A DNA stretch of 64,000 nucleotides. Origin: Patescibacteria group bacterium. Its GTDB lineage: Bacteria > Patescibacteriota > Minisyncoccia > Ryanbacterales > GWA2-47-10b. Each line of letters opens with the position of its first letter. Positions within the stretch are counted from its first letter, which is position 1. Positions 8,107-23,734 of this stretch are shown here, in pieces. The notes beneath the pieces are model-generated. The model saw only the letters and a list, made by a program, of their open reading frames with translations. It searched no databases and was not told the DNA's origin. The translations under genes and the position numbers were made by a program. Location of the stretch: assembly GCA_038064855.1 (NCBI GenBank), contig JBBTSE010000002.1, positions 8,530-72,529 of the forward strand. Reading direction: 5' to 3'.

Positions 8107-8763
8107 CTACTTGTAGAACTCCCGCAAGACGGGCTTGCGTTCGAGCTCGGAGAGCGGCCGGAGACCCTTGGCCTGGGTTAAAGCGTCGATCACTTCCAAG
8201 ACGGCGCCATGCACCGCCTCCTGGAACATGAGCGTGGTGTCGATGCGAAAGTAGGTGAGCGGCCGGAAGAGGCGTTCGAACACCCAGCCGACCACCGGGA
8301 TCACGACGATGTAGACTTCCTTGCCGCTCTCGGAGAGCAGAACACCGACGATTCCCAGGCCGATCACGACAGCCAGAACTGAGACGAGCAGTCCCACGCC
8401 CATGCCGAGCTGAGAGCCGATCAGATTCCAGGCCACCATGAAGCCGATGACGGCTGCTGCGGTGGGCAGAACCGGCGACGGCCGCGGTTCCCCCAACCAC
8501 GTCGAGACGAAGAAGCTGTTGCCGAACGGTGCCGCGCAGATGTCAAAGCTGTGCCTGCCACGCGAAACCCGCAGGTACTCGCGCTTCGCGGACAGCAGAC
8601 CACCCTCTTGCCAGTCGATACGCGAAGGCTTTCCGTCGGGAACCTGACGCTTCTCGATCGCCTTCTCGACCGCGGTGTAGAACTCGAGCGACGAGGTCTC
8701 GAGATTCTCAATGAGCCGATGCCAATGGGAGATGATTGCAGCGGTGGGTATGGATCTCGGCAT
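8107..8763 (-). CDS. Hypothetical membrane protein (operon partner of the ATPase)
   Basis: Two central transmembrane helices (AAVIGFMVAWNLIG..., GLLVSVLAVVIGLGIVGVLL). Six-bp gap to the upstream gene and 40 bp to the ATPase gene. Start could be 8790 or 8763 (GGGGTGA RBS). Confidence 0.55.
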   Translation of the reverse strand: MPRSIPTAAIISHWHRLIENLETSSLEFYTAVEKAIEKRQVPDGKPSRIDWQEGGLLSAKREYLRVSRGRHSFDICAAPFGNSFFVSTWLGEPRPSPVLPTAAAVIGFMVAWNLIGSQLGMGVGLLVSVLAVVIGLGIVGVLLSESGKEVYIVVIPVVGWVFERLFRPLTYFRIDTTLMFQEAVHGAVLEVIDALTQAKGLRPLSELERKPVLREFYK

Positions 8764-8795
8764 GGCTTCACCCCTTGCTCCGGGGGTCACTCACA

Positions 8796-9359
8796 TCAAG
8801 GCTCTTGGTCCTTGTGCCGCGCGACACCCTCGTTGTGGTAGGCGAAGCCGGAGTAGGAGCCGTAGGGCGAGGAAAGCGTTCCAGTCCCGTCGGTGGACTC
8901 GGTTCGCGAATGGTCCTCGGTGAGCATACCGGCGAGAGTCCGGTCACGCCGGTGGTAGTTGGTCAGACCACGACGCTCGATGGTGTACTCGTAGACAAAG
9001 CGGTTGGTTGTGAAGCGAATCACCTTGCCGGCGTGGACCACTGCGTCATCCGTAAACTCGCCGCAATCTTTCGTATCTTGACTACACGGACCGCTCGGTG
9101 TGACGCAGGTCGTGATGGTCAAGCAGTAGCCCGCGATGATTGACTCTACGATCTCTGGCTTGCCGCCATCGCGCTCGACGGTTCTCCTCTTCGTTTTCCA
9201 AACCGAGAACGACATCCCCGTGTCCGCGTCGATGAGCTGGAACATGTTCGCGTTGAAGAACACGGTTCTTGAGGAGAAGCTCGAGGCCAGGGCAGGTGAT
9301 GCGATACCCGTAGCGACCGCTCCAATAAGTACAACTGTCGCTGCGGTCTTGTTCACCAT
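8796..9359 (-). CDS. Secreted hypothetical protein (signal peptide)
   Basis: The N-terminus MVNKTAATVVLIGAVATGIASPALA looks like a Sec signal. The gene is tightly packed in the operon. Confidence 0.55.
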   Translation of the reverse strand: MVNKTAATVVLIGAVATGIASPALASSFSSRTVFFNANMFQLIDADTGMSFSVWKTKRRTVERDGGKPEIVESIIAGYCLTITTCVTPSGPCSQDTKDCGEFTDDAVVHAGKVIRFTTNRFVYEYTIERRGLTNYHRRDRTLAGMLTEDHSRTESTDGTGTLSSPYGSYSGFAYHNEGVARHKDQEP

Positions 9360-9378
9360 ACGAGCGTCCAGCCCAGAG

Positions 9379-12300
9379 TTACGGCACGACGGTCAGCGGG
9401 CCGCTGGCGCAGACTGTCCCCGATGCCGTGCGGTAGTTGCAAACGCGGAGGGTGTACGTCCCCGCGGTCACGATCACGGAACCGCCAACGGTCAACTGGC
9501 CGATCGTACCGACGGGGCGTGTGTTCAGATCGGGTCGCGGTATCGGTGTGCCGTTCACATCCCACTGCAGGCTTAAGGCACCCTGGTTGTCCGAGTCTCC
9601 GAATACGAACCCGCTCCCGTTCACGCGGACATCATAGCCATTGAAGAGATTGCATGTCTGGCCGGCACGGCAGGTACCCGTGATCGATGAGATGACGGGC
9701 GATGGTTGATAGACCGCGAACTGGACGGTGTTGCTCCGCTGGCCGTTGGAGAAACTGGGCACGGGGTTATAGAGCTGGACAAAGTAGGTTCCTGGCCTCT
9801 CCGGGAATCCGACGCCGGAGCCCTCACCGAACGAATCGACATGGTAGGTCGCGAGTGTGCTGCTCGCAGGTGTTGCTCGAAGGCTCCCAAGCCCTGGCGG
9901 ATCAGAAGCACCCCACAAGAGATACAGGATCCCGGTACTGAAGTTCTGACCCGTGAATGAAAGATCGACAGCCCCCGTATTGAGCGTCACAGATGAAGGC
10001 GTGAAGTTATTGATTGCTGGCACGGGGAGCGCGGCGGTCGGTGTCGGTGAAGGGGTCGCTGTTGGGCTTGGAGTGATGCAGGCGAATTTCTGGATCCGAT
10101 CGATATCTGCGACATAGACATTGCTGGCAGAGTCAACGGCCACGCCGGTCGGTCCCCTGAACTCACCGCCGCCAGAGCCAGACATCCCCCATTGACCGAT
10201 GAATGTGCCGCTCTGGCTGAACTTCTGGATGCGACGGTTGGTAGTGTCGGCGACGTACACGTTACCACCATCGATCCGTACATCCTCCGGCCCCATGAGT
10301 TCGCCGACACCACTGCCCCCAGGTCCTCCCCACTTCGTGAGAAAAAATCCACCTGAACTAAATTTCTGGATGCGATTGTTCCCCGTATCGGCAACGTACA
10401 GGTTGCCTGTTGCATCCACCGCTACGGCGCGTGGTTGCAACAGCTCGCCGTCGAGACTTCCGACAGTCCCGATCTTCCCCACGAAGCCGCCGTTACCATC
10501 AAATATTTGGATTCTATGATTGTTTCGATCAGCTACATAGACCTTACCGCTAGTATCGAGAGCGACACCCGTGGGCTGATCGAATTGCCCATCGCCGGTA
10601 CCCCGCGTACCCCATACGAGCACGAATGTACCGGCAGTCGTGAACTTGTGAATGCGGTGATTCAGCCTATCGGTGACATACACATGCGTGCCATCAGTAG
10701 CGACGCCCGAAGGCGTGTCGAACTGTCCGTCACCCGCGCCGTAGCTTCCCCAACTACCAAGAAAGACCCCGTCGCTCGTGAATTTCTGTACGCGAAAGTT
10801 CTCCCTCTCGGTGACATACACGTTGTCGGCGGCGTCAACGGCGAGATGGTAGGCGCCGTTGAGCTGCCCATCCCCAGAACCAAGAGTTCCCCACTTGGTC
10901 ACAAATGTGTACTGGCACCCAGCGGTCGCTGTTGGGGTCGGCGTCGGAGAAGGAGGAGGTGTCGTGTAGAAGACCCGTGCCTGCACATAGTCCGCACGGC
11001 AGGTGTTGGTAGGCGTCGTGCCACGAGCCCAGCACCACATCCGTACGCGGAAGTTCAAGTCCGAAATCTCTCCCGGCGACCAGCTTCGTCCCCAGGTGTC
11101 GGTTGACCCACCGATCGTCCAGGTGCCACGACCACCAGAGAGACCACTCCCTCGGCAGTTGGGCGTCCCAGGTGTGGTGCTCACACATTCGCCGCCGCCT
11201 TCCGGATCAGGATTCACCATGTAAGCCGGAATGAACGAGCTACCGCCGTCGTACGACAGATCAGTGAAGATGTCGTCGAAGTAGTTACCTACGCCTACGT
11301 GTCCTTCAATCTGAACCTCGATACCGGTGACGGTTGCATCAGAGGGGAGTGAGAAGCCGAATCCGCCTACTTGGTGAGTTGGCCGCACGCTGCCAACCTT
11401 CATGCCGACTGCATCGAGATCATCGTCGGCGAAGAGGTTCTGGCCGTCGACCCAACCACCCGTCTGACTGCCGCCCAAGAGAAAACCCGTGTCAGTTGAG
11501 ACCGGGCTTGGCGTGTTTGTTGGAACTGGCGTTGGGCTGGGACTGGCGAGAGCGGGAGGTAGGCACACAAGGACGATGGTGTCCGTATCCTTCTGGCCAT
11601 CAATCCCAACCGTGCGGAGCTTGAAGGCCCGCGATGCTTTCTTGGGACCGTTCCGGCTCGACTTCAAGCGTACCCGAAGATCGACATCGCTCGTGTAGAG
11701 TGAGCCGATGAAGGGCAGGGCACCAACACCTGCAAGAGCATCGAGGAGCCCCATCCGGTTCATGGCGTCGTCCGCGTTCTTCTCCGAATCCTTCTCGCTT
11801 GGTTTCAAGAGTTCGTAGGACGCGATGCCCGGAGACACGCATGCGGGTAGCCGTAGGTCCTGGTGGTTGAAGATCAGCCGCGTGTTGAAGGTGCAGGCGC
11901 CATCAGCCGCGCCATCGAGATCGCACGCGGCACCGTCAGTGCAGGGCTGCTTCGACTTTGGCACACACTTGCGTGAGTCGAGTAGTAGCTCACCCGCAAG
12001 AGAAAACTCGCCGAAGCAGTCGGTCTTGGCAGAGCCGCCGCCCATCACGAGTGACTTGTCAGAGGCAGAACCGCACGAAAGGAGTCCTTTCAAGACATCA
12101 ATGTCGCCCTTGTCGATGACGCCGTTGCCGTTCAAGTCTCGCGGATCTTCGGGGTTTGCAGGGCGGCCGAGGGCGTCGCGGATGATTTTCTCATCTTTCG
12201 CATCAATACGGGTATCATCGGTCAAGTCACCACGGAACCGCGGCAGGCCGACTTCCAGCCGAATAATTCGTTGAGTACCACCCGGGAGATATACGAGGAG

Positions 12301-12897
12301 GCTGGCGACCCCGTAATCAATACCTGTAATTACAAACCGGGTCTTGCCTTGGCTTTCCTCACGTCGCACTGTGGCAACGCTCGGGTGAGCGGTCTCGATG
12401 AGGCTTTCCTGTAGGCCAGTTACATCAATGTCGACACCTTCGACGTAGGCATGAAGGGAAAGACTCTCTTCCTCGGCTGGGCGGACCGCCATCAGCTCCG
12501 GCACCTCAATTGCAGACCCATAGTCGAAATCGGGAAGCACTAATATCTCGACGCTATCGCGTAACACCGTCGTGCCAACTCGTCCGGCAATCCTCAGTGT
12601 AACGGGCCCGACGACGTCTGCAGGTAGCGGGAGCTGGATCATTCCGGAACCACCTGAGGCCCGGCCCGCCCCGCCGGGTACCGTCGCGACTAGCCCATCG
12701 AAGGTCACCCCGTGCGTATCTACCAGCACACTCACAATGTCGCCCCGCTGGAATTGCTCGCCAGGTGCGGGGCTAGTGATTTCGAGCATTGGGTCAGCCG
12801 CGGCTCGCCCAATCACGAGGAGCAAGACCGCAACCGTAACCACGACGATCGCAGTCGCTAGTAATGCCAACCGATTCATATACCAGGACATTATCAT
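9379..12897 (-). CDS. Large cell-surface protein with NHL-repeat beta-propeller, dockerin-like motif, Pro/Thr linkers and Ig-like C-terminal domains
   Basis: There is an N-terminal transmembrane/signal segment. Six NHL-type blades are visible (NFRVQKF, NHRIHKF, NHRIQIF, NNRIQKF, NRRIQKF, IDRIQKF). DLNGNGVIDKGDIDVL is dockerin-like. [21 protein letters not shown] are linkers. Confidence 0.75.
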   Translation of the reverse strand: MIMSWYMNRLALLATAIVVVTVAVLLLVIGRAAADPMLEITSPAPGEQFQRGDIVSVLVDTHGVTFDGLVATVPGGAGRASGGSGMIQLPLPADVVGPVTLRIAGRVGTTVLRDSVEILVLPDFDYGSAIEVPELMAVRPAEEESLSLHAYVEGVDIDVTGLQESLIETAHPSVATVRREESQGKTRFVITGIDYGVASLLVYLPGGTQRIIRLEVGLPRFRGDLTDDTRIDAKDEKIIRDALGRPANPEDPRDLNGNGVIDKGDIDVLKGLLSCGSASDKSLVMGGGSAKTDCFGEFSLAGELLLDSRKCVPKSKQPCTDGAACDLDGAADGACTFNTRLIFNHQDLRLPACVSPGIASYELLKPSEKDSEKNADDAMNRMGLLDALAGVGALPFIGSLYTSDVDLRVRLKSSRNGPKKASRAFKLRTVGIDGQKDTDTIVLVCLPPALASPSPTPVPTNTPSPVSTDTGFLLGGSQTGGWVDGQNLFADDDLDAVGMKVGSVRPTHQVGGFGFSLPSDATVTGIEVQIEGHVGVGNYFDDIFTDLSYDGGSSFIPAYMVNPDPEGGGECVSTTPGTPNCRGSGLSGGRGTWTIGGSTDTWGRSWSPGEISDLNFRVRMWCWARGTTPTNTCRADYVQARVFYTTPPPSPTPTPTATAGCQYTFVTKWGTLGSGDGQLNGAYHLAVDAADNVYVTERENFRVQKFTSDGVFLGSWGSYGAGDGQFDTPSGVATDGTHVYVTDRLNHRIHKFTTAGTFVLVWGTRGTGDGQFDQPTGVALDTSGKVYVADRNNHRIQIFDGNGGFVGKIGTVGSLDGELLQPRAVAVDATGNLYVADTGNNRIQKFSSGGFFLTKWGGPGGSGVGELMGPEDVRIDGGNVYVADTTNRRIQKFSQSGTFIGQWGMSGSGGGEFRGPTGVAVDSASNVYVADIDRIQKFACITPSPTATPSPTPTAALPVPAINNFTPSSVTLNTGAVDLSFTGQNFSTGILYLLWGASDPPGLGSLRATPASSTLATYHVDSFGEGSGVGFPERPGTYFVQLYNPVPSFSNGQRSNTVQFAVYQPSPVISSITGTCRAGQTCNLFNGYDVRVNGSGFVFGDSDNQGALSLQWDVNGTPIPRPDLNTRPVGTIGQLTVGGSVIVTAGTYTLRVCNYRTASGTVCASGPLTVVP

Positions 12898-12923
12898 GTT
12901 AATATTCTAGCACGATACTTTGC

Positions 12924-15900
12924 CTAGGGTTGTGGACTACTCGGGGGCACTCTAACAAACTGATCGACTACACCATCGAGCAAGTTAGCGATCTCGGCCG
13001 GAAGTTGCGGTCGCGAAAGGATTGATCGTGATGGAAATGGGGCATCCGGTATCCCGCAGTAGCCGACGGTGCCAGAGTAAACCTCCTGGATATCTCGCTG
13101 GAGTCTAAGATATCTCGCCAAAACAGTCGCGTCTGTGTGCAGATAGGGGCCGACTCCGGTCACCTGAGAGCCGGCTTGTGATAGCGTCTGACTCTGAATC
13201 GGCGACACGAGGTCCGTCAGGACCGCGGGGGAGCCCAAGAGCTGCGCCCCACCACTCGGCGGGCTCCATGCCACCGTACAGAAGGGCGGGGTCACAGGGA
13301 GATCCTGCAAATAGTCGGCGAGATGACAGAGGGCAGCATCCAGGCTGTTGGCATCATCCGCTGACGATGATGCAGAAACAAAATGCGTAGGTATCGAACC
13401 CGGCCGTGAGTTAAGCGTACGGAGGGCATCATTGGATGGGCAATCCGAAACCGGGCAGAGGTTCGCGACAGCTCCGTGGTGAGCCTGCCGAAGGTAGTTA
13501 CGCAGATCGTCATCGTCGTCAGAGAACCGAAGAACCGTGTCAACGATGCCGGCGACATCCGTCGAATACTCGAAGGGACAGGATACTATTGCGGACGCGA
13601 AGTCGAGGCCGACGGTGGCCCAGCGTGTGCCCTCGTGCGGTGTGTCGATGCTGACGAGCCTACGAACATCGCCCGCGAGAAAGTTCGACGGTCGCCTATA
13701 GAGGCCTCCAAGATGTTGATTTAATGCTTCAACACAGTCCTGAAAAAGGCCTGGAACCGGTTGGCAGAGTGGAAGAGTCCGAGTAGCCAGGGCACCCATA
13801 CTGTGTGCGACGACGTCGAGTTGGATCGCGACCGCATCGTTGTCGACTCCGAATCGATTGAGGCAGCCTCGAAGATCGCGAGCGATCTCGCCGGCGACAG
13901 TGGCGAAGGACGCGAATTGACTACCGGTGTAATCAGCTACGCAGTAGTAGTGCTTGTGAGGAGGCCGAATCGCAGGGGGAAAAGTCAGGTGAACGCTCGA
14001 ATCTGGGGGCGAGGCGGAGTTCAGGAATGACCGCCAAGTGTTTCTGCTGCCGCCGAAGCCATGCACGAGAAGAACAGGCGGCCGTAGAAGTCGCACGACT
14101 CGTTCAGGTGAGCTGCAAGGTTGATGAGGTGAAGACGGTGGATCTGGAGTAAACTGAATTGTATAGGGATAGGAACGGTCTCGAGTGGTGTCGTCCCCAA
14201 AATGATCGGGACTCTTGACGATGAAGTAGCCCAGGTGGCGAGTGACCGAGGCAGCGTTCTTTACTTCGGTCGTGCGTACCGATTGGCTGCAGGGATTTTG
14301 TGAAACAGCGCCCGCAAGGGTGTGGATGGATGGATTAAGGGAATTGGCAGGACAGTCGATTGAGAAGGTGATATCGCCCGGTTGCTGGGTCTCAAAAACA
14401 AAAAGGAGACGAGATACTCCGTCGCTGGCAAGCGCAGTTGGGTGCCATGCATAGTACGGAAGTCTAGAGGTAATTGAGGAGATATCTGAATTGACGAGTC
14501 CGGCGGAAGTCGCAAAGGATGAAGCGTCGTAGGTTATTACTTGCACAGAGTTGCAGGTAGATGTGGACGGTGAGCAACGGGGATCTAGGTCGTCGATAAA
14601 GTCGTTGCAGTCGTCGTCAGCGCCATTGGTGCAGGTGGGGTCACCCACGGGACCTTCAATGCCCGGTGGTGCGGGATAGTAACGGCAGGAATCGCCGACG
14701 CAGCGGTCGAGCGTGCATCCGTCCGCATCCTCGCAGTCGCCATTCAGCGCGCAGTCAGCAGAACCACCAATGCAGGCACAGGATGCGTTGCAGGTTTGGC
14801 CGGTTGAGCAATCGGACGGGGAGCCGTCACATTCTTCGTTGCAGCCGGCCTGGATGACATCGTCGCCGCAGTGAGGACCGCCCGCGCACACGCCGGCGGT
14901 GCAGCGGTCGTTGATCGTGCACGGGTCGGGGTCGGTGCAGCTGGTGTTGTTGGGGCGGGACTGTCTTTGGCAAGCGTGTGTAATGAGATTACAGACACCC
15001 GTGTTGCAGTCGTTGGCTAAGCTGGTGCACTGGGTATCGCTGGTGCAGCCGAGTATTTCGCACGCACCGCAGTCGCTTGCGCGGCACGTCTGGCCGCCGG
15101 CACAGCTTGACGGCAATCCGGTGTCACAGGCCTCCGTACCACAGACCCTTCCGTCGCCACACGAGACGGGACGGGGCTGTTGGACACATTGGTCGTTCGA
15201 TTCATTGCAGACACCCGTGTTGCATAGATCAGTCTGAGCGCTGCAATCTCTGGCCGTTCCGCCGACGCAGGTGCCGGCACCGTTGCACGCGTCGTTGATC
15301 GTACAGAACTGTGTATCGTCGCATGAGACGGTGTTGTTCGCTGTGACGCATTGCGCAGTGCTCGGGTTACAGGAGTCATTCGTGCAGGAGTTACCATCGT
15401 TGCAGCTCGTATGGCCGGGATCACTGCACGAACAACCGGCCGAATCGACAACCTGACCAGAGGAAGTCCCCGGACACGAGTCGCTCGCATCCGGAACACT
15501 GTCGCCATCGGCATCCGGAGGTACCCCACCTTGGCAGGTGCATGAAGCGGTGCAGGTCTGGCCGGCCGAGCAGCCGACTGGTGATCCATCACACTGCTCG
15601 CTACCTTCCTTGGTGTTGTTCCCGCAGGTTGTGATTAGCCAGTGTCCGTTGGTGCTCCAACCGGTCCCAGGGGACCCGGAGAGTTGCCACCAGAGGTTCT
15701 GCCCGATGTTCGTTCCCGCGTCGGCGCAGGTCGGTCCGCCGACAACGGTCATCTGTGTACCCGACGGCATCGTCGCCACGAGTGTTCCGGTGACACCTGC
15801 CGGATTGCGCAACCGTAAGTTGTGGCCATCGGCTGTGACGCTTACTGTGATCCCGATCGAGGGAAATGGTGTGAGCCATTCGGCGACCGCACTCCAGCCC

Positions 15901-16205
15901 TCGCGGTTCTGGTCGTCGCGCACCTGCCACCACCGAAAACCATCTGGCGTTACCGTGACGCCGTCACCGATTACCTGGAGGAAGTCGAGTGGTGGGTTTG
16001 TCCCGATCTCTGAGGAGGCAACCCCGGGCCCGTTCCTGAGTTTCAGGCCCGTCCCGCAGGTGTTGACGATCTGGACCTGCTGTCCGACCGAGATGGCAAG
16101 TGCCGGTGTCGCGTGAGCGAGAACCACTGCCGAAAGGAGAATGCTGGCTCCGCGGCACGCTCTCCGTGCCCACAGTCTGGACCAAGTCGCAGGCGTCTCC
16201 GCCAT
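12924..16205 (-). CDS. Secreted multidomain protein: tandem SH3b-like modules, Myxococcus-type cysteine-rich repeats, C-terminal alpha/beta-hydrolase (lipase-like)
   Basis: RBS GGAGGGGAG precedes ATG (MAETPATW...). Signal sequence with RR (WARRACRGASILLSAVVLAHATPALA). Repeats such as CGDGRVCGTEACD...C, and later PVLLVHGFGGSRN plus VVAHSMGALA (GxSxG). The alternative upstream start at 16286 is less likely. Confidence 0.7.
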   Translation of the reverse strand: MAETPATWSRLWARRACRGASILLSAVVLAHATPALAISVGQQVQIVNTCGTGLKLRNGPGVASSEIGTNPPLDFLQVIGDGVTVTPDGFRWWQVRDDQNREGWSAVAEWLTPFPSIGITVSVTADGHNLRLRNPAGVTGTLVATMPSGTQMTVVGGPTCADAGTNIGQNLWWQLSGSPGTGWSTNGHWLITTCGNNTKEGSEQCDGSPVGCSAGQTCTASCTCQGGVPPDADGDSVPDASDSCPGTSSGQVVDSAGCSCSDPGHTSCNDGNSCTNDSCNPSTAQCVTANNTVSCDDTQFCTINDACNGAGTCVGGTARDCSAQTDLCNTGVCNESNDQCVQQPRPVSCGDGRVCGTEACDTGLPSSCAGGQTCRASDCGACEILGCTSDTQCTSLANDCNTGVCNLITHACQRQSRPNNTSCTDPDPCTINDRCTAGVCAGGPHCGDDVIQAGCNEECDGSPSDCSTGQTCNASCACIGGSADCALNGDCEDADGCTLDRCVGDSCRYYPAPPGIEGPVGDPTCTNGADDDCNDFIDDLDPRCSPSTSTCNSVQVITYDASSFATSAGLVNSDISSITSRLPYYAWHPTALASDGVSRLLFVFETQQPGDITFSIDCPANSLNPSIHTLAGAVSQNPCSQSVRTTEVKNAASVTRHLGYFIVKSPDHFGDDTTRDRSYPYTIQFTPDPPSSPHQPCSSPERVVRLLRPPVLLVHGFGGSRNTWRSFLNSASPPDSSVHLTFPPAIRPPHKHYYCVADYTGSQFASFATVAGEIARDLRGCLNRFGVDNDAVAIQLDVVAHSMGALATRTLPLCQPVPGLFQDCVEALNQHLGGLYRRPSNFLAGDVRRLVSIDTPHEGTRWATVGLDFASAIVSCPFEYSTDVAGIVDTVLRFSDDDDDLRNYLRQAHHGAVANLCPVSDCPSNDALRTLNSRPGSIPTHFVSASSSADDANSLDAALCHLADYLQDLPVTPPFCTVAWSPPSGGAQLLGSPAVLTDLVSPIQSQTLSQAGSQVTGVGPYLHTDATVLARYLRLQRDIQEVYSGTVGYCGIPDAPFPSRSILSRPQLPAEIANLLDGVVDQFVRVPPSSPQP

Positions 16206-16314
16206 CTCCCCTCCGTCAGGTTGTCCCCGGTGCCGAGCACCAAGAGCTAGACCGGCCGGAACGCAAAAGTCAACCAGTACCGTCACCTACACCAAATGGT
16301 GTATCTCGCTCGGG

Positions 16315-17538
16315 GTGGCGGAACCGAAAGACGAACGGTCAGCCAGGCGGCGCTCTCATGCGCCGCACCCTCGCGATCTTCACCTGACCGATCTGGTCGG
16401 TCAGATCTACGAGGCCGTGGGAACCAGCGATGGCTGGGGTGTCTTCTTGGGCGGCCTTGCCGGAAGGATGCGCAGCGTAGCCCCGGCCCTCAACCTGACC
16501 GGCAAGGAACGTGACGCCGGTACGCTCTGGATCGCCCCTGGTCAGGACGACGAAGAGACGCGGCGCGTCTACGACACCTACTACCTCGCCCGTGATCCGA
16601 GGCGCCCCAAAATCCAGGAGACACCTGCCGGCGGAACCTTCATCGGCAACAGGGTCTTCCTCGATCGCGAGCTTGTCCGAAGCGAGTTTTTCAACGACTT
16701 CCTCCGGCCCCGAGACTTCTTCCACATCATGGGAGGAGTTCCCATCAAAGAGCCCGAACGGATGGCGGTGATCCGCCTCATTCGGCCGAGGAAGGCGCCA
16801 CCTTTCGGGAATCAAGAGCTTCGGCTCCTCAGAGTCGTCATGCCGCACCTCACCCGAGCCCTCCACCTCCACTGCGAGATTGCTCGCGTCGCGGACGCGC
16901 GAGACAGCGCTCACGAGGTGCTCGACCGGTTTCGGACGGGAGTCATCCTGCTCGATCGTGAGGGCAAGGTCATCACCGCAAACCTCCAGGCCCGTGCGAT
17001 CCTCGATCGCAGCGATGGTCTGTTGGTGAAGGACGCCACTCTCACTGCGGAGAGCACCGCTGCGAGAAGCGAGCTTGCCTCGACGGTCGCAGGGGTGCAG
17101 GCGCCCGACGGCAACGAGTCTGCGTCGCTTCGCATCCCGCGCTCCTCGGGGAAGAGACCGCTCGGGCTCCTCATCGCGCGGCTTCGAGGCAGACTTCTCG
17201 GCGACATCTCGAATCGAGCAGCGGTCGTTGTCTTCGTGAGCGATCCCGACGAGCAACGAGTGGCGCCGATCGACTTCGTCCGGCAGTCGCTCGGTCTCAC
17301 CAAGGCCCAGGCTCGTCTCGTTGTTTCGCTCGCTGCCGGCGGACGCCTGAAGGACATCGCCGAGAAGCTCGGCATCACCTATGCGACTGCACGCAGGGAG
17401 CTCTTCGACGCGTTCAAGAGAACCGGGGTGCACCGGCAGAAAGATCTGATCGGGCTCGTGGTATCGAGCGTCGGCTCGGTCATGCAACATGCGGACCTCG
17501 AGGTCGTCGGTGGTAGCGGCCATCGCCGATCTTCGTGA
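16315..17538 (+). CDS. LuxR-family transcriptional regulator (C-terminal GerE/LuxR HTH)
   Basis: C-terminal LTKAQARLVVSLAAGGRLKDIAEKLGITYATARRELFDAFKRTGVHRQKDLIGLV. The N-terminal DLVGQIYEAVGTSDGWGVFLGGLA is typical of large LuxR regulators. The start (GTG 16315) is uncertain; the gene is divergent from the 16205 operon. Confidence 0.65.
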   Translation: MAEPKDERSARRRSHAPHPRDLHLTDLVGQIYEAVGTSDGWGVFLGGLAGRMRSVAPALNLTGKERDAGTLWIAPGQDDEETRRVYDTYYLARDPRRPKIQETPAGGTFIGNRVFLDRELVRSEFFNDFLRPRDFFHIMGGVPIKEPERMAVIRLIRPRKAPPFGNQELRLLRVVMPHLTRALHLHCEIARVADARDSAHEVLDRFRTGVILLDREGKVITANLQARAILDRSDGLLVKDATLTAESTAARSELASTVAGVQAPDGNESASLRIPRSSGKRPLGLLIARLRGRLLGDISNRAAVVVFVSDPDEQRVAPIDFVRQSLGLTKAQARLVVSLAAGGRLKDIAEKLGITYATARRELFDAFKRTGVHRQKDLIGLVVSSVGSVMQHADLEVVGGSGHRRSS

Positions 17539-17920
17539 TCGCCTTCCCGCGAGACCAGCGCGCGACGGCCATGACCGCGGCTCTCGGATTGCGCGAGAGG
17601 GCAGGGATCCTCTTCTGGATTTCTGCGAGCGTGAACTCGTTCGGCAGTCCCGCGAGCACCTTGTCCCAGTCGATGCCGGAGGGCTGATTCCGCTTGCGGA
17701 CGACCTTCCTCGTTCGGGAGGACCGAGCCGGAGACCGAACGCGCACGCCCTGGGGCTGCCCTCGGCCAATACCGGAGAGTGCCGCGGTCCACTTCAGAGC
17801 TTCTTGTCGGAGACCCGAGAGGTGATTCTCCACGTCGGCGATCTCTCGGCGTATCAGGTCGAGCGTACGGTCGACCTGTCTGCGCAGGTTCCCGAAGATG
17901 TCGCGCTGTCTCGGCATGTC
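17480..17920 (-). CDS. Hypothetical protein
   Basis: ATG preceded by GGAGGGG RBS (MPRQRDIFGN...). Convergent with, and overlapping, the 3' end of the LuxR gene. No recognisable domain. Confidence 0.35.
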   Translation of the reverse strand, partial: DMPRQRDIFGNLRRQVDRTLDLIRREIADVENHLSGLRQEALKWTAALSGIGRGQPQGVRVRSPARSSRTRKVVRKRNQPSGIDWDKVLAGLPNEFTLAEIQKRIPALSRNPRAAVMAVARWSRGKAITKIGDGRYHRRPRGPHVA

Positions 17921-17989
17921 CCCTCCTGTTTGGCAGGCGAGAAGAACTGAAACGGGCGGCAACGTCAACGACAGCGCGGGTTGGATGCC

Positions 17990-18080
17990 GAAAAGAAAAG
18001 AGCCAGCTCCCTTTGGAAGCTGGCTCGTATCGTTTCAGAACCTTCCCGTGTCCACGAACGAGACATAGCGGTCATCGCCG
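17990..18080. repeat. Direct repeat copy B (hairpin GAGCCAGCTCCCTTTGGAAGCTGGCTC + intact radC 3' end)
   Basis: Matches 4383-4478. Here the radC reading frame is intact through the repeat. Confidence 0.7.
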
Positions 18081-18469
18081 ATCACGACATGGTCGAGAAT
18101 GCGGATGCCGAGGAGGTCTCCGGCCTCTTTGAGGCGGCGGGTGAGCGCAACGTCCTCGGCGGACGGCTCGGGATCTCCCGACGGGTGATTGTGAACGAGG
18201 ATGAGGGTGGCAGCATTCGCGATGATCGCCGCCTTGAACACCTCGCGCGGATGGACGAGCGACGCGGTCAGCGACCCGACCGACACCGTGTTGAAGCCCA
18301 TCACGCGACCCTTGCCGTCGAGGAGCACGGCGATGAACTCCTCGCGGTCGAGCTTCAGGAAGCGGTCACGGAAGGTGCGGAAGATCTGCTCGGAGCCGGC
18401 AACCGGCGAGCCGGCCAGACCGTAGCCGCCTCGCCGCTCTCGGACGACCTTGAGCTCCCACATGGTCAA
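18035..18469 (-). CDS. radC: RadC-like JAB/MPN domain protein
   Basis: HNHPSGDPEPSAEDVALTRRL (JAMM HxHPSG...S..D motif) and C-terminal DDRYVSFVDTGRF. Confidence 0.85.
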   Translation of the reverse strand: MTMWELKVVRERRGGYGLAGSPVAGSEQIFRTFRDRFLKLDREEFIAVLLDGKGRVMGFNTVSVGSLTASLVHPREVFKAAIIANAATLILVHNHPSGDPEPSAEDVALTRRLKEAGDLLGIRILDHVVIGDDRYVSFVDTGRF

Positions 18470-18846
18470 TCCTCCCCGGGGAGCATGATCGTGGCGACCG
18501 GTTCGCCTTCATCGCCAGGTCCGACATGGAGGATCATCTCCACAACCTCGGCGTCGATGAGGACCGAGAACGAGACAGAGCTGTCGTCGGGCCGTTTGCG
18601 GGCGGCGAGTGAGGACATCCACAGAACGTCGTGGGCTCTGCCGCGGGTGTCCTCGTGACTGTCCGCGGGCGCTTGGACGAGAGCCCAGACGGCGGCCGTC
18701 ATGGCGACCGGAATCCGGAATCCACCCATCATCTCGCGGGTGCTTGCCCACTCGGTCATGTCGACGAGCACGCCATCCTCGATCGCCTGACCGCGCGTGT
18801 AGCGGTGGACGACATCGGCGTCCGAAAAGAACTTTTCCATGGTCAC
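18466..18846 (-). CDS. Hypothetical protein (translationally coupled upstream of radC)
   Basis: ATGA overlap with the radC start. No recognisable motif. Confidence 0.5.
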   Translation of the reverse strand: MTMEKFFSDADVVHRYTRGQAIEDGVLVDMTEWASTREMMGGFRIPVAMTAAVWALVQAPADSHEDTRGRAHDVLWMSSLAARKRPDDSSVSFSVLIDAEVVEMILHVGPGDEGEPVATIMLPGED

Positions 18847-18998
18847 CCCTCGGGTGACTGTTCAGAGAGAGGAATCTCCCCCCGGGAGGTCTCGTCAAAG
18901 AACTCCCCGGGAGAGGTCTGCGAAAATGCAGACCGGATCGGGTGAAAGGTGATAGCGACAGTCGCGTCTCTTCCATCAACACAGAGGAGGACTCGCCG

Positions 18999-19211
18999 AT
19001 GCGCAGGTTTCTTGTTGGATCGATCGTGACTGTCGTTCTCGGATATTCAGCCTTCCCGCTGCAGGGGAGCACGCAAGCGGAGATCGCACCCGTCGTTCCT
19101 GATATCGTCGAGAGGAGCGGCTGCTGCTCATGGCACGGCGGCGTCTGCGGTTGCGACTCTGGGCGCGCCGTGTGTTGCGACGGTATGCTCAGCCCGTCGT
19201 GCGGCTGCTGA
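18999..19211 (+). CDS. Small secreted cysteine-rich peptide (about 70 aa, at least 9 Cys)
   Basis: RBS GAGGAGG precedes ATG. Signal-like MRRFLVGSIVTVVLGYSAFPLQGSTQA, then SGCCSWHGGVCGCDSGRAVCCDGMLSPSCGC. Confidence 0.45.
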   Translation: MRRFLVGSIVTVVLGYSAFPLQGSTQAEIAPVVPDIVERSGCCSWHGGVCGCDSGRAVCCDGMLSPSCGC

Positions 19212-19238
19212 TGGCGCGGTGACCGGCCATCTCGGAAT

Positions 19239-20456
19239 TCAAGCGATGTCGCGAGGTGCCAGCGTCTCCGCGCTGAATGGGTGCGTCTGGATGCCGAGGG
19301 TCATGAGCTTCAGGTAGATCTCGTGGTTCGGCAGGTAGACGAGATCGCCCTCCGAGATCTCGGGGTAGAACTCGCGCGCGACGATCTCGGCATCGGCCAA
19401 GCCGATCCGAAACGAGATGATCGTGCCGACGTTGCCGATGATCGCGTCGCGGATCTCCGGTGCCAACTGCGAGAGGTACTGGTGCGCGAGCACCAACCCC
19501 ACGCGGTACTTGCGGAGCTCCGAGAGCATGTTCGCGAGCGAGAGGGTCGTGAAGTTCTGGAACTCGTCGAGGTAGACCCAGAAGTGTCGCCGCTCGGTCT
19601 CCGGGATCTCCGCTCGGCCGAAGGCGGCGTTGCCGATCGACGAGACAAGTAGCGATCCCAAGAGGTTCGCGGTGTCCTCGCCGATCTTCCCCTTGGCGAG
19701 GTTGACCAGCAGGATCTTGCCCTCGTCCATGACGCGCCGAAGATCGAGGCCTTCTCCCTTGCCGTTCAAGATCCCGTAGAGGAGGGGGTTGGCAAGGAAC
19801 GCCCCCACCTTGTTTTGGATTGGTGCGATCGCCTCGGCGCGAAACCGATCCGGATACCCCGGAAATTCCCGCAGCCAGAAGGACCGGACCTGCGGGTTCT
19901 CGACTCGTTGTCCGACGCCTCGCCGGTAGTCGTCGTCCGAGAGCAGGCGAAGGACATCCGCGAGCACCGGCTTCTCCTGGTCGAGAAGCGCCAAGAGCGC
20001 ATTCCGCAGGATGTGCTCGAGGCGCGGTCCCCAGGAGTCAGCCCACAGCTTTCGGAACACCTCGAGCATCGCGGAGGCGGCAAGTGACCTCTTCTCGAAG
20101 GGAACCCCGCCGAGCGGGTTGAAGGAGAGGGTCCGCGATCGGTCAGGCACGTCGAAGTAGATGACATCGCCCTTGCGCTCGTCGGGGACCGCGCCGAGCA
20201 CGCGCTCGACCAGATCTCCGTGGGGATCGACCAGGGCGAAGCCGTAGCCTGCACGAAGATCATCCCGCATCAAGGTTTCAAGGAGCGTCGACTTTCCGGT
20301 TCCCGTCTTGCCAAGCATATATATATGGAAGAGCCGATCGGTGGTCCGAATCCCGAAGGGCCTGTGTTCTGTGCGAAAGTTCGTCCGGGCGAAGACGGCA
20401 AGGTGGTTCTGGGTGTGGTGCATCCTCACCCATGATCGAGCCCATCGCTCCAGCAC
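19239..20456 (-). CDS. TraD/TrwB-like P-loop ATPase (short paralog of the 4978-8067 product, ATPase core only)
   Basis: Walker A MLGKTGTGKSTLLETL, DPHGDL, Walker B VYLDEFQNF, LVLAHQ. About 40% identity with the giant ATPase is apparent by eye. Confidence 0.8.
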   Translation of the reverse strand: MLERWARSWVRMHHTQNHLAVFARTNFRTEHRPFGIRTTDRLFHIYMLGKTGTGKSTLLETLMRDDLRAGYGFALVDPHGDLVERVLGAVPDERKGDVIYFDVPDRSRTLSFNPLGGVPFEKRSLAASAMLEVFRKLWADSWGPRLEHILRNALLALLDQEKPVLADVLRLLSDDDYRRGVGQRVENPQVRSFWLREFPGYPDRFRAEAIAPIQNKVGAFLANPLLYGILNGKGEGLDLRRVMDEGKILLVNLAKGKIGEDTANLLGSLLVSSIGNAAFGRAEIPETERRHFWVYLDEFQNFTTLSLANMLSELRKYRVGLVLAHQYLSQLAPEIRDAIIGNVGTIISFRIGLADAEIVAREFYPEISEGDLVYLPNHEIYLKLMTLGIQTHPFSAETLAPRDIA

Positions 20457-20560
20457 ACGAGACGGGAGGACTTGCCGTTCGCGGCAACATGCCCCGTCTA
20501 CTCGGCCCGCTCCATCCTCCTACGCTGAAGGCAGACGCTCTTTGGACAAAGGAGGATACG

Positions 20561-21100
20561 ATGAGCCAGGAGCAGAACGGTCGGACGCGATCGGCCGCAA
20601 GAGGTCCGGTCGCCCAGATGCGGGTGAAGCGAAGCGTGAGCCCCGACGGCAGGATCGACTCGCTCTCGGTCGAGATCACCTCGCCCCTCGAGAGTCTTGC
20701 GCCAGATGAACTCACGCGATGCGCGAAAGAGATCATCGCCAGCGAGGCCGAGGTCGTCGAGGTCTTTCTCGGGAAGCAGCAGGCGGAAACCCTCCCTCGG
20801 TCGAAGTCGCGAGCGAACGGCAACGGAGCCAAGGGAACCCCGGCCCAGATGCTGTCAGTCGGCGGCATGGACACCGAGTGGGGTAGGCGCCTCTTCATCA
20901 CCTTCAAGGTGAATGGGGAGACCGCCCGCGTGTTCGGCTCGACGCGGAAGGTTGCGGGCCTGCTCGCCTCGGCCGGCACGCCCCTCGAGGAGTCGGCGAT
21001 CGAAGAGGGTCTTGATCTGAACATCCCGTGCAGGGTCCTCACGGGCAAGACCAAGGACGGCCGCTACCTCTCGATCGAGAAGGTGCTGCCGGCGACCTAA
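20561..21100 (+). CDS. Hypothetical protein
   Basis: RBS aaggagga precedes ATG (MSQEQNGRT...). Divergent from the ATPase paralog. Confidence 0.45.
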   Translation: MSQEQNGRTRSAARGPVAQMRVKRSVSPDGRIDSLSVEITSPLESLAPDELTRCAKEIIASEAEVVEVFLGKQQAETLPRSKSRANGNGAKGTPAQMLSVGGMDTEWGRRLFITFKVNGETARVFGSTRKVAGLLASAGTPLEESAIEEGLDLNIPCRVLTGKTKDGRYLSIEKVLPAT

Positions 21101-21212
21101 CCCACAAGGCCAGACGTTCCTCGGAGCGTCTGGCCTCTTTTTCAAGCTGGTTCCGGAAGGCAAAGAAAAAGCCGATTGGTTGGTCCAGTCGGCGGGGCGT
21201 ACCCGATTCGGG

Positions 21213-21461
21213 TCAGGAAAGGAGCGAGAGACGCCTGAGGTCGTCCTCCGTCCAGCGGGCTTGGAGTTCGATCATGCTCCGGAGAGTCTTTGGCGGGAAA
21301 GTGTCGCCAGAGTGGTGGAAGGTCACGGTGACGCGGCGCCCGTCAGCATGCGTGTAGTGGCGGTGGCTGCCGCGCTGGCGATCGAGAGTGAACCCGTCGG
21401 CGAGAAGAGCTCGAACGAGTTCGCGGGCTGTGAGGGAGCGGAGTCGGCTGTAGTCGATCAT
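21213..21461 (-). CDS. hicA: HicA-family mRNA interferase toxin
   Basis: RELVRALLADGFTLDRQRGSHRHYTHADGRRVTVTFHHSGDTFPPKTLRSMIEL matches the YcfA/HicA GSH...H motif pattern. Confidence 0.8.
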   Translation of the reverse strand: MIDYSRLRSLTARELVRALLADGFTLDRQRGSHRHYTHADGRRVTVTFHHSGDTFPPKTLRSMIELQARWTEDDLRRLSLLS

Positions 21462-21739
21462 CCGATGGTGACGGCCACCACGGGTTCATCCAGTACCTTG
21501 ACGTCTGCTGGCAAGGCCTCGCCGTCCTCGAGAAGGCTCTCGAGAACCATCTGGGCAACCTCCTCGATATTGCGGAGCGCCTCGTCCTTGGTCTTGCCCC
21601 ACGTGGCGGCACCCCTCGCCTCGAGGGCGGGGACGTAGGCGCGCCAAGCGTCAGCGTCCGGCTCAACGACGACCGGGAAGACATACGACTTCACGATTCC
21701 ACCTCCTTTCTTGAGGATCTGGGTTGATTCCATACCCAA
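21458..21739 (-). CDS. hicB: HicB-family antitoxin
   Basis: YVFPVVVEPDADAWRAYVPALEARGAATWGKTKDEALRNIEEVAQMVLESLLEDGEALP is the UPF0150/HicB fold signature. There is a 4-nt overlap with hicA. Confidence 0.75.
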   Translation of the reverse strand: MGMESTQILKKGGGIVKSYVFPVVVEPDADAWRAYVPALEARGAATWGKTKDEALRNIEEVAQMVLESLLEDGEALPADVKVLDEPVVAVTIG

Positions 21740-21909
21740 GTGTAGGGAGACCGGCCAACAGTGTCAACCTATGTTTAGTAGCTTGTAAAGAACGCCGCGC
21801 TCTTCTCCTGATTGTCCACGTGACGATGAAGCCCTGCATGCTCGTAGTGTTGTTTGTAAGGAGTACGAGGTCGCCGATTTGGCGATTCACTTCCGAGCCG
21901 GAACGTCTC

Positions 21910-22593
21910 CTACTTGTGGCGGGTATCGGTCGATCGGGAGGGTTGGACGAAGCCGACAGGACTCTTCTCGACGCGGGCTGGTGGCAGTTTTGTCGTCCCG
22001 AGATCTTCGCCAACGCGGTCGAGGACTTCCTTGATCCCGGGAATCCATGGGACGCTTTGACGGAGCGGGAGATCGAACCAACGGAAGGACGAGAACTCTC
22101 GGAAATTTAGCTTCACTGCTCCCTTGTTGGCGAGGCAGAGAAAGCGGATGCCGGGGATGACTCGCTGTTCGGTAGGCACGTGGATTGAGTACGCCTCGAG
22201 AATCTGTCTCGGCTCAATGGCGAGTCCGAGTTCTTCGAAGATCTGCCGCTTGATGGCAGCTTCGAAGCTCTCTCCGGGGAGCACCGAACCACCGCCACAT
22301 TCCCAGTGGCCCGGAAAGAGAGATCGTTCCCGTGAGCGTTTCGCCCCGAGTACCTTCCAGCGTCCCGCATCCTGGCGAACGCAGACGCCCGCGACGTGTA
22401 CCTCGATGAGGGGTGGGCCATCCTCGCGGATGGGAAAGTGTGCGTGCTCAAGCTTCACATTCTCATTATACACCGCCCGTGAAGAATCCAAGCGATCCGA
22501 TATCGGGCGGTCATAGCCTCGGAGCGGGAAGCATCGAGACGGCTCTTGTAGATGTCGCGGATCAGCTTCTTCGCGTCGACGAGTCCTTTCCAT
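21910..22593 (-). CDS. NUDIX hydrolase
   Basis: Nudix box GSVLPGESFEAAIKRQIFEELGL (G-x5-E-x7-R[E/Q]UxEExGU). The start is uncertain (ATG 22593 versus GTG 22458). Confidence 0.55.
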   Translation of the reverse strand: MERTRRREEADPRHLQEPSRCFPLRGYDRPISDRLDSSRAVYNENVKLEHAHFPIREDGPPLIEVHVAGVCVRQDAGRWKVLGAKRSRERSLFPGHWECGGGSVLPGESFEAAIKRQIFEELGLAIEPRQILEAYSIHVPTEQRVIPGIRFLCLANKGAVKLNFREFSSFRWFDLPLRQSVPWIPGIKEVLDRVGEDLGTTKLPPARVEKSPVGFVQPSRSTDTRHK

Positions 22594-23115
22594 CCTCCCG
22601 CATGGCGGGGGAGGTTGCCACGAAGGGAACACCACCCCTCTTGGTTCCTGATCGAGCCAGGGTCATACTTGGGCAGCATCACGCGGCGATGCTGCGGCCA
22701 TCGTGTGCTTGAGTGTCGGTGAGTTCTCGTATCTTCGCGAGCGTCGCAAGAGCGGAGGCATCAGCGCTCAGGGCAAGGGTTCGAACGTCCTCTACGTAGG
22801 TCCACATCTCAATAAAGAATCGAACTCCGGACTGCTGGGGGCAGTCCGCGGGCGAGCTGTGGGAGCGAGCAAGATTCTCCCCAGGTCCACCACTTCGCTT
22901 CGGTGTTATGATAATTGTATAGAATCGAAAAAAAATAAAGTTAATCGTCTTGTCTATCGAAGTTAAATTGTGACCATTAAAATAGCTTAGTTTATATGAT
23001 TCCCCTCTTAAATATGGCATTTCACGTGAAATATTGGACATTTCTGTGTATATCTATTGGACATTGTGGATAAAGGACATTAAAATCATGTCTTTTATGT
23101 CCTTTTGCCTTATGT

Positions 23116-23625
23116 ATGCCTCAATATAGCGAAAAGCGTCGTATAGGGAACATTGCCGAAGACGTATCGGTGGTGTTTCTTGTGAAAAGCGGTCATATGG
23201 TTTTAGATAGAAACTATCTAAAGAAGTGGGGCGAACTCGATATTGTATCGGTTGACCGATCCGATACTATCCATTTTATAGAGGTTAAGTCTAAAACTAT
23301 CGGCTTTTCACGTGAAATGAATATAGATAATACTCAAAATTTAGTTTCACGACAAGTTTCACAAAAAAGTTTCACAGCAAATACATTTAAAATAGAGCTT
23401 TCACGTGAAAGCATTGATGAGGAAAGTGATGGATATCGACCAGAAGATAATGTCCATTACTTTAAGCAGAAGCGCATGATGCGGGCGATCGAGTCATATA
23501 TAATGGAAAACGAAAGTAAGATGGGGGATAGAGAGTGGCAGATTGATGTTTTGGCCGTAGCCCTCGATTTTTCACGGGAAACGGCTATAATGAGGCATAT
23601 TGAAAATGTGATTTTTGATATATAG
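23116..23625 (+). CDS. yraN: YraN/UPF0102 family endonuclease-like protein with about 60-aa internal insertion
   Basis: RRIGNIAEDVSVVFLVKSGHMVLDRNYLKKWGELDIVSVD...IHFIEVKSK and C-terminal REWQIDVLAVALD match UPF0102. The insertion is encoded by TTTCAC/GTGAAA repeats. Confidence 0.55.
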   Translation: MPQYSEKRRIGNIAEDVSVVFLVKSGHMVLDRNYLKKWGELDIVSVDRSDTIHFIEVKSKTIGFSREMNIDNTQNLVSRQVSQKSFTANTFKIELSRESIDEESDGYRPEDNVHYFKQKRMMRAIESYIMENESKMGDREWQIDVLAVALDFSRETAIMRHIENVIFDI

Positions 23626-23660: not shown

Positions 23661-23734
23661 CGGAGTGTAGTATACCGGTAGTACGTCTGCTTTGGGAGCA
23701 GATAGACTGGGTTCGATTCCCAGCACTCCGACAA
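23661..23734 (+). tRNA. tRNA-Pro (anticodon TGG)
   Basis: Acceptor CGGAGTG/CACTCCG, anticodon arm TCTGC-TTTGGGA-GCAGA, T-arm CTGGG-TTCGATT-CCCAG, discriminator A. CCA is not encoded. Confidence 0.7.

Follow-up and report, generated by a model that had tools for sequence, protein, structure and literature searches.

Evidence for site-specific integration of a high-GC element, through the gene of its own serine recombinase, into a Patescibacteria chromosome

In the mycobacteriophages with integration-dependent immunity (BPs and Brujita; clusters G, N and P), which use a tyrosine integrase, the phage attachment site (attP) lies in the 3' part of the repressor gene. In the 'suicidal' integrases of the SSV type (SSV1, pTN3, pT26-2) the site lies within the integrase gene, so that integration partitions this gene between the two ends of the element, and self-splitting integrases have been described in a 2021 review as exclusively archaeal tyrosine recombinases (PMC8371274). 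In aquifer Patescibacteria, horizontally acquired islands, with donors sometimes outside the phylum, have been predicted from composition (Gios et al., 2025; PMC12455944); the terms 'recombinase' and 'integrase' were not found in the main text of that study, which points to the absence of an attachment-site analysis there. Here we describe a stretch of 64,000 nt (the window; positions 8,530 to 72,529 of contig JBBTSE010000002.1, assembly GCA_038064855.1) from a metagenome-assembled genome (MAG) of the Patescibacteria, or candidate phyla radiation (CPR), in which a GC-rich block ends abruptly against CPR sequence. Very probably, this junction is where the right attachment site (attR) was formed when an integrative element of ~31.3 kb, a member of a high-GC family, recombined site-specifically into a Ryanbacteria-like chromosome. 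The evidence comprises a split recombinase gene, a core shared by both joins, the reconstruction of attP and of the target, CPR sequence on both flanks, a relative free of the island, repetition across assemblies and the affinity of the block to high-GC bacteria.

A preliminary description of the window had reported a fall in GC content from 65% to 40% near this position. The local step is indeed as sharp as described, from 0.60 in the 100-nt interval 22,800-22,899 to 0.26 in 22,900-22,999, with values of 0.29-0.44 up to about 23,700, but the right side averages 48% and not 40%. At the kilobase scale the GC content is 57-66% left of the junction and 41-55% right of it, and overall it is 60.7% in the island compared to 48.4% in the host part of the window. 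The tetranucleotide comparison proposed in that description separates the two sides cleanly (r = 0.18 between island and host), with 5-kb chunks left of the junction correlating at r = 0.86-0.98 with the island profile and those right of it at r = 0.77-0.92 with the host profile. Codon usage differs across the boundary as well, the GC content at third codon positions (GC3) being 0.63-0.83 in six island genes and 0.36-0.54 in nine host genes, although values of up to 0.83 are high and fall short of the saturation that had been claimed. As to gene content, the serine recombinase, the TrwB/TraD-like ATPases and the HicA/HicB toxin-antitoxin genes named for the left side were recovered, together with NUDIX and RadC genes, but a transposase remnant could not be confirmed, while on the right side rny, gpmI, clpP, tig, hppA, nusA, PilB/PilC/PilM and thioredoxin/CcdA genes are present as stated. 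The recombination junction itself (22,802-22,806) lies ~97 bp to the left of the visible GC step, because the first host bases, 22,807-22,903, have a GC content of 61%.

The element carries two genes for large serine recombinases (LSRs), here named Rec(+) and Rec(-), and the latter is split between the two ends of the element. To the left of the window it was followed on the contig stretches L004 and L002, which extend the window leftward at 100% identity (L-numbers denote the loci compared). The first 490 codons of Rec(-) form the extreme left end of the element, and its final 40 codons occupy positions 22,679-22,801 in minus-strand orientation. The left-end part shows 78-79% identity to L041 (a Candidatus Binatia MAG) and L039 (a 62.5%-GC contig) up to '...PSNSELW', past which it runs through 10 unrelated codons from a CPR repeat, while L039 and L041 go on jointly as 'RYVxDVRT...'. 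The missing tail 'EMWTYVEDVRTL...' ('EMW-TYVEDVRTLALSADAS...*') has its coding sequence at 22,679-22,815 of the minus strand, where nucleotide identity (blastn) is 81% to L039 and 85% to L041, whose genes are uninterrupted. When joined, the two parts yield a seamless in-frame open reading frame (ORF) of 531 aa that is collinear with the intact homologues across the joint. The left attachment site (attL) reads ...AATGACA-CCACA-GTTCAGAATTTG... and attR reads ...CTACGTAGGT-CCACA-TCTCAATAAAG..., and in a four-way register of attL, attR and the intact L039 and L041 genes all four align on CCACA, the reconstructed Rec(-) attP being collinear with both uninterrupted genes. Thus, the recombination site lies inside a recombinase gene which is partitioned by it, as is Rec(-) here and Rec(+) in Binatia, and, as in LSR elements, there is a short shared core, CCACA, at which joining restores both attP and the chromosomal target. 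Since both joins are halves of one gene with the same core, they reflect one reciprocal recombination of a circle, and on this ground a chimera, insertion of a miniature inverted-repeat transposable element (MITE) and an inversion were excluded as the source of the split. The CPR repeat cannot be a MITE inserted in the recombinase gene, as the missing 3' part does not follow the repeat but was located at the opposite edge of the island; likewise, the two pieces of the gene share one strand, which is predicted by circular permutation and not by an inversion.

Nevertheless, the very sharp shift in GC content, codon usage and gene content is what would also be expected if a high-GC contig of another organism, or a free plasmid, had been wrongly joined to a CPR contig, the more so as the metagenomes are of low coverage (6-10x) and the block stands at the end of every contig bearing its left part. 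The same junction, however, is carried by separately assembled contigs in the European Nucleotide Archive (ENA) that originate from Hainich groundwater and represent different samples and assemblers. Hain_H51_01um_R3_588 (34.4 kb), from another sample, corresponds to window positions 13,116-26,889 at 99.96% identity, with 5 differences that all lie at the end of this contig within a repeat gene, and R2_724 (32.3 kb), from a third assembly, corresponds to positions -8,528 to 23,725 at 100% identity. The attR, which is unique sequence and not shared by several genomes, is carried by at least three contigs from different samples or assemblers. At the contig level, coverage in one sample is closely similar for R2_724, which bears the block, and the adjoining host contig R2_657 (8.5x versus 9.7x), and these two contigs overlap by exactly 55 nt inside tRNA-Pro, a branch of the de Bruijn graph. 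The contig breaks are accounted for by the multi-copy CPR repeat at the left end and by this k-mer-sized overlap in the tRNA gene on the right. Polymorphism of the island was considered as a cause of the breaks on the left, which the multi-copy repeat explains better, and a circular contig or plasmid was dismissed, as the two ends of R2_724 have no sequence in common. A chimera would thus demand two false joins, each repeated in several assemblies from different assemblers, and misassembly does not yield joins that are reciprocal halves of one gene with the same 5-nt core. None of the usual marks of a chimera (a single assembly, a junction in shared sequence, unequal coverage) was found at the contig level, and we consider this explanation highly improbable. 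Of the two possibilities named in the preliminary description, a chimera or an acquisition across phyla, the repeated junction, the split recombinase gene, the island-free relative and the high-GC closest relatives favor the acquisition.

The sequence to the right of the junction belongs to a CPR chromosome. The closest homologues of yraN are from CPR (Patescibacteria/Ryanbacteria), the host PilB shares a 90% cluster with a protein labelled Candidatus Ryanbacteria, and the region, which also encodes surface proteins and a two-component system, is syntenic with other CPR contigs. In L048, a 304-kb CPR contig from Hainich well H41 with a yraN homologue of 83% aa identity, tRNA-Ala(cgc), a 102-aa ORF, yraN, tRNA-Pro(tgg), surface proteins, acylphosphatase, HU and rny follow one another in the same order and orientation as in the window, nt identity being 82-99% from yraN to rny. 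Left of its yraN region, L048 lacks a high-GC island and contains ordinary genes of 41-59% GC, namely those of the CCA-adding enzyme and rpsO. It has not conserved the exact sequence of the target, and the contigs of close relatives, which were sought via RNase Y, end before the junction. In the window, a tRNA-Ala-like fragment at 22,861-22,892, which lies 55 bp to the right of the crossover and has no counterpart in attL, comprises a T-stem with an oversized loop, an acceptor strand and CCA, but no complete tRNA; 18 of 18 nt match the 3' end of the tRNA-Ala(cgc) at the equivalent position of L048. Similar orphan tRNA fragments occur after the CPR repeat or after tRNAs in L017 and L035. Integration at tRNA-Pro(tgg) was rejected, as this gene lies 855 bp right of the crossover at attR and has no copy at the left end.

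On the left, 51 nt of AT-rich sequence precede the end of the element at L004 ~52, and these include a 28-mer, GTTCGAGCAAATGATATAATGACACCAC, for which 32 exact matches were found in GTDB species representatives. A lineage is given in the record title of 24 of these matches, and all 24 are Patescibacteria (Nomura-, Ryan-, Kaiser-, Vogel-, Zambryski- and Yanofskybacteria, Saccharibacteria, Paceibacteria, Minisyncoccia and two H51 bins), the other eight being MAGs without a lineage in the title. A stem-rich repeat of 250-400 nt (L004:1-55, L007-L038), for which there is no Rfam family, has the 28-mer as its 3' end; the genes upstream of the repeat vary, there may be several copies per genome, and many copies are located at contig ends. 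The target before insertion is reconstructed as AGTTCGAGCAAATGATATAATGACA-CCACA-TCTCAATAAAGAATCGAACT, of which the 28-mer is exactly the left half, and it shows a perfect outer inverted repeat of 7 bp centred on the crossover, which was reached by 35 of 5000 shuffles. At seven other CPR loci an LSR gene lies ~140 nt past the 28-mer, and these CPR-native recombinases share 35-37% identity over ~475 aa with Rec(-) and no detectable similarity with Rec(+). A right half-site motif follows the 28-mer at 13 of the 32 loci and, as these are mostly homologous copies of one module, carries little weight. Because the 28-mer of the target adjoins Rec(-)-related LSR genes in other CPR loci, it appears that Rec(-) itself catalyzed the integration, at a site that a related clade of CPR recombinases uses.

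The repeat shows further features of its own. The 28-mer contains an extended -10-like motif (TGATATAAT), and the repeat often precedes either a small hairpin and T-run module with an LSR gene, or tRNA genes. Inverted pairs of the repeat occur on three contigs, at an estimated distance of 8.5-11.6 kb if the paired loci are contiguous stretches, and in L023 and L033 the small module after the 28-mer directly abuts its own inverted copy, giving a long perfect palindrome. The end of a CPR-native element, a non-coding RNA gene and a promoter module are candidates for the nature of the repeat. A TnpB/IscB omega-RNA or transposon end is not supported, given that there is no consistent upstream ORF (SerRS, AlaRS and methyltransferases are found) and no Rfam family.

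The backbone of the island is 72-87% identical at the nucleotide level to L039, L041 and L052, and ~12 kb of it are alike in the ENA contig ctg30344 and the Binatia contig (72-87%). This conserved part comprises Rec(-), a 450-aa gene, HTH (helix-turn-helix) genes, Rec(+), TrwB, a 218-aa gene, RadC, DUF6573, a second TrwB-like gene and a 179-aa gene; the segment from RadC onward has the same gene order in L052 at 72-85% nt identity. Up to aa ~492-500, the amino acid identity of Rec(+) is 90% with L039 and 70% with Binatia, and the 1029-aa TrwB-like ATPase shows 75-80% aa identity to proteins on the same contigs as the relatives of the recombinase module. For a 429-aa backbone protein more than 4,900 homologues were found, the best being 85-89% identical, with named matches in Binatia, Acidobacteria and Deltaproteobacteria; across two homologue searches the named matches were Binatia, Acidobacteria, Deltaproteobacteria and Nitrospinales, and this MAG was the only CPR entry among the 120 best matches listed in each. 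The taxonomic assignment of hits that the preliminary description had suggested thus separates the two sides, island genes matching Binatia and other high-GC bacteria and the host yraN matching CPR. In the same way, the tetranucleotide correlation of the island is 0.95 with the Binatia locus versus 0.18 with the host. The characterization of the acquisition as very recent is supported in part only: it agrees with the unameliorated composition and the intact genes, but the nearest sampled relatives are just 72-87% identical and for this reason the direct donor is unsampled.

Could the block instead be old native CPR DNA of atypical composition, or could the transfer have run from CPR to high-GC bacteria? 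TrwB-like ATPases and related LSRs are present in other CPR genomes (L022 and the seven loci above), and genomic islands are common in Patescibacteria (PMC12455944). However, the GC content is 12 points above that of the host, GC3 reaches 0.83, the tetranucleotide signature is that of Binatia-type loci, the named homologues are non-CPR and a related CPR genome lacks the block, all of which makes such an origin extremely improbable. The transfer presumably proceeded from a high-GC donor to the CPR bacterium, and the element is presumed to be mobile at present. In L022:2,500-5,500 (Candidatus Paceibacterota, DATKGV010000014.1), a TrwB-like ATPase with 40% aa identity to the 394-aa copy of the island and a serine recombinase sit in a patch of 43-49% GC within a genome of ~32% GC, near the same CPR repeat; elements of this kind may thus have relatives that reside in CPR genomes.

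The elements of L041 and L039, the two high-GC relatives, have an intact Rec(-) with the TrwB block on its other side, and it is the homology of their Rec(+) to the intact 655-aa protein that stops, at aa ~492-500, beside host genes. The relatives are therefore circularly permuted, as expected if the circle had been opened elsewhere. In Binatia the HTH tail of Rec(+) is found at the far end of the element, the dyad GGCAACGC-N12-GCGTTGCC, which is whole in the window (1,399-1,426), is divided there into two half-junctions that share a 13-nt core (CACGGCCGCGTTG), and the reading frame is continuous across the far-end joint ('AALPCW...' compared to 'AALPSCHW...'). Taken together, the most probable mechanism is one in which the 3' region of each LSR gene contains an attP. 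In this CPR genome the circle was very probably opened inside Rec(-), with 490 codons kept on the left, ending in 10 host-derived codons, and the last 40 codons moved to the right end, the crossover falling within or adjoining CCACA. The target was, on this reading, the end of the CPR-wide repeat, marked by its 28-mer, joined to a unique arm with a mirror-image TCGAAC motif, and in the Binatia copy the same kind of element was opened inside Rec(+) instead. The predicted joint of the excised circle is ...CTACGTAGGTCCACAGTTCAGAATTTG... and the predicted empty target ...GATATAATGACACCACATCTCAATAAAGAATCG....

Several observations weigh against this interpretation. The core shared by the two joins is only 5 bp long, and the dyad of the reconstructed Rec(-) attP is not significant (1075 of 5000 shuffles). 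No unoccupied copy of the exact target was found, L048 being arranged differently there and a scan of JGI (Joint Genome Institute) metagenomes for the B' arm, the host-side arm of the target, being empty. The split of Rec(+) is not replicated on L039/L052, where no fragment was found but the contig ends 5.4 kb past TrwB. Moreover, all assemblies derive from one aquifer and probably one population, being identical except at the contig end in the repeat gene, and one of the ENA assemblies may stem from the very library of the Logan run; every contig ends 51 nt into the left flank, where CPR continuity is carried solely by these 51 nt of CPR-specific sequence. The short core, the non-significant attP dyad and the missing virgin chromosomal site (attB), together with the PilB/PilC/PilM genes of the host and the type IV pili and competence-like genes that CPR cells bear, would fit a real integration of taken-up DNA by illegitimate, microhomology-mediated recombination which Rec(-) did not catalyze. 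Such an event would hardly be expected to break an LSR gene when the other LSR gene of the family is also split, at a dyad site, in another phylum. Nor would it account for an exchange that is conservative and reciprocal, with no element sequence lost, for a target dyad centred on the crossover, or for a crossover at the exact end of a repeat adjoined by related LSR genes in seven other CPR loci examined. Illegitimate recombination is thus considered improbable, and site-specific integration remains the reading we favor. A further proposal, that the two integration modules serve different phyla, Rec(+) in Binatia-type hosts and Rec(-) at the conserved CPR site, so that the element would shuttle between CPR episymbionts and high-GC hosts, is speculative and on balance rather unlikely.

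The features of the element and of the adjoining host sequence are compiled in Table 1.

Table 1. Positions of the element, its attachment sites and the neighboring host features in the window
Feature	Position	Strand	Details
Integrated high-GC element, part within the window	1..22806		~31.3 kb in all; starts 8,477 nt left of position 1, at L004:52
Rec(+), intact large serine recombinase, 655 aa	1..1892	+	Start codon 75 nt left of the window; C-terminal double-HTH extension
attP of Rec(+), unused, inside its own coding sequence	1399..1426		Clear dyad GGCAACGC-N12-GCGTTGCC
TrwB/TraD-like coupling-type ATPase, 1029 aa	4978..8067	-	Pfam DUF8128 and TrwB_AAD_bind
Cargo: two large secreted-type proteins, NHL-repeat (1172 aa) and SH3-domain (1093 aa)	9379..16205	-	Pfam; gene calls in L001/L002
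Backbone block: RadC, DUF6573, second TrwB-like ATPase (394 aa), 179-aa gene	18035..21100		Precomputed Pfam in L001
Right-end cargo: HicA, HicB, NUDIX (182 aa), 74-aa gene	21213..22679	-	Gene calls and Pfam in L001; NUDIX by Pfam
3' fragment of Rec(-)	22679..22806	-	W codon within the core, then 40 codons 'TYVEDVRTLALSADAS...SIAA' and stop; minus-strand translation; blastn
attR crossover core CCACA	22802..22806		Same 5 nt in attL at L004:52-56
Host-side arm B' of the target	22807..22903		61% GC; TCGAACT mirrors AGTTCGA of the left arm; tRNA-Ala-like 3' fragment at 22,861-22,892
AT-rich host intergenic region	22904..23115		29% GC; homology to island-free relative L048 from ~22,999
Host yraN (UPF0102), 169 aa	23116..23625	+	Pfam; 84% nt identity to L048
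Host tRNA-Pro(tgg)	23661..23732	+	ARAGORN and Rfam; 98.8% identity to L048; branch point of the assembly graph

The two recombinases share their domain families, Rec(+), which is called as 655 aa in L002 too, matching Resolvase (PF00239), Recombinase (PF07508), Zn_ribbon_recom (PF13408) and HTH_31/HTH_3, and Rec(-) matching the same Resolvase, Recombinase and zinc-ribbon families in the precomputed annotation of L002/L004. The backbone of the family consists of two outward-facing LSR genes, a conserved protein of ~450 aa, HTH regulators, two TrwB/TraD-like ATPases and RadC. To this, the island described here adds the NHL and SH3 proteins, which are missing from the Binatia and L039/L052 copies, as well as HicAB, NUDIX, M78/RHH and CBM96. 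In two related elements (L052:13,358-17,869 and L041:3,090-6,559) the cargo includes likely defence genes, Patatin with E2/ThiF/JAB in one and DUF6119 with HEPN_AbiV in the other, so that defence and toxin cargo seems to vary within the family. No prophage genes (capsid, portal, terminase, tail) were detected by Pfam or PHROGs among the island proteins, with only an M78 peptidase/regulator and weak matches. Likewise, neither scanning the large ORFs with Pfam nor the precomputed Pfam annotation revealed a relaxase, VirB4 or another type IV secretion gene, small ORFs being left unannotated. Of the hallmarks of an integrative and conjugative element, the two TrwB/TraD-like ATPases were the sole finding in these scans, and no replication initiator was recognized either. 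A plasmid collection yielded only distant matches, confined to the ATPase core at up to 36% identity, and neither a tyrosine integrase nor repeats of a tRNA 3' end at the borders, as known from tRNA-targeting islands, were present.

A number of additional observations were made on the host side. Four copies of the palindrome TTCACGTGAA lie in and around yraN, on a stretch of 630 bp (23,021; 23,307; 23,400; 23,642), and the rest of the window has none, with 0.1 copies expected by chance; two copies are conserved in L048, and it may be a binding site for a regulator. Directly behind tRNA-Pro(tgg), a patch of ~115 bp (23,733-23,850) reaches 63% GC in a 100-nt interval; the 3' end of the tRNA is partially duplicated where the patch ends, as ATTCCCAGC...[19-nt insert]...CACTCCGACA (23,809-23,848), and the patch resembles a scar left by an earlier integration. 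The gene of a 754-aa surface protein with Ig/cadherin/PKD repeats (25,597-27,861) has near-identical internal repeats which terminate contig R3_588, and the surrounding region from 24 to 30 kb (MopE-like, Ig-repeat and 497-aa genes) varies among close relatives. An IS200-like Y1 transposase gene (52,926-53,582) lies inside the type IV pilus region of the host. Finally, a yraN homologue, P0264, which is 82% identical to the CPR protein, is found on a 390-kb contig assigned to a 'Methylomonas sp.' MAG; binning has probably placed a CPR contig in the genome of a methanotroph by mistake.

In summary, a junction that appeared suspicious in a MAG has become a mechanistically resolved example of the passage of a large mobile element out of a high-GC phylum and into the streamlined genome of a CPR bacterium. 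For the curation of MAGs this implies that cutting a contig segment for its deviant GC content would here have thrown away real biology. A sequence of 28 nt that is exactly conserved over many CPR lineages represents a recombination hot spot, and, paired with its cognate recombinase, might be developed into a tool for organisms with almost no genetics, or, should the two-module reading be true, a natural landing pad in CPR. The affinity of the donor may hint at the bacteria on which this CPR organism lives and would point to its host if the shuttle reading were true.

Among known systems, the element resembles the LSR elements and prophages (phiC31, Bxb1, A118 and SPbeta; Tn4451/Tn5397; the Ccr recombinases of SCCmec) in the combination of Resolvase, Recombinase and zinc-ribbon domains, in the conservative exchange between attP and the chromosome, in a shared core of a few bp without long direct repeats and in a recombinase gene at the edge of the element. 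In contrast to these, attP lies here inside the coding sequence of the recombinase and integration swaps its C-terminal tail; the element has two LSR genes of this type, one or the other being used depending on the host phylum, there are no phage structural genes, and the host is a CPR bacterium. With integrative mobilizable and actinomycete-type elements, which have FtsK-/TraD-like ATPases, it shares a site-specific recombinase and TrwB/TraD-like ATPases without full type IV secretion, but it differs from them in that no relaxase or replication initiator was recognized and in that the nearest plasmid ATPases are at most 36% identical, in the core only. As regards the islands of aquifer Patescibacteria, which Gios et al. 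(2025; PMC12455944) predicted from composition, the present analysis resolves the two junctions together with the target and the family of the element. A literature search, which was incomplete, returned no earlier report of an LSR with attP inside its own coding sequence. The present case thus adds bacterial serine recombinases with an attachment site in their own gene to an arrangement that has been called exclusive to archaeal tyrosine recombinases (PMC8371274). Unlike the SSV-type integrases, the enzymes are neither tyrosine recombinases nor from archaeal hosts, and where the SSV-type split inactivates the enzyme, the loss here amounts to the last 40 of 531 residues in Rec(-), or to the ~155-residue HTH tail of Rec(+) in Binatia. 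Since integration swaps the C-terminal tail of the recombinase, it could act as a built-in switch between integration and excision. The likeness to the mycobacteriophages is that there, too, integrated and free forms encode different C-termini and thereby contain a built-in switch, the split gene being a repressor in the phages and a serine recombinase here.

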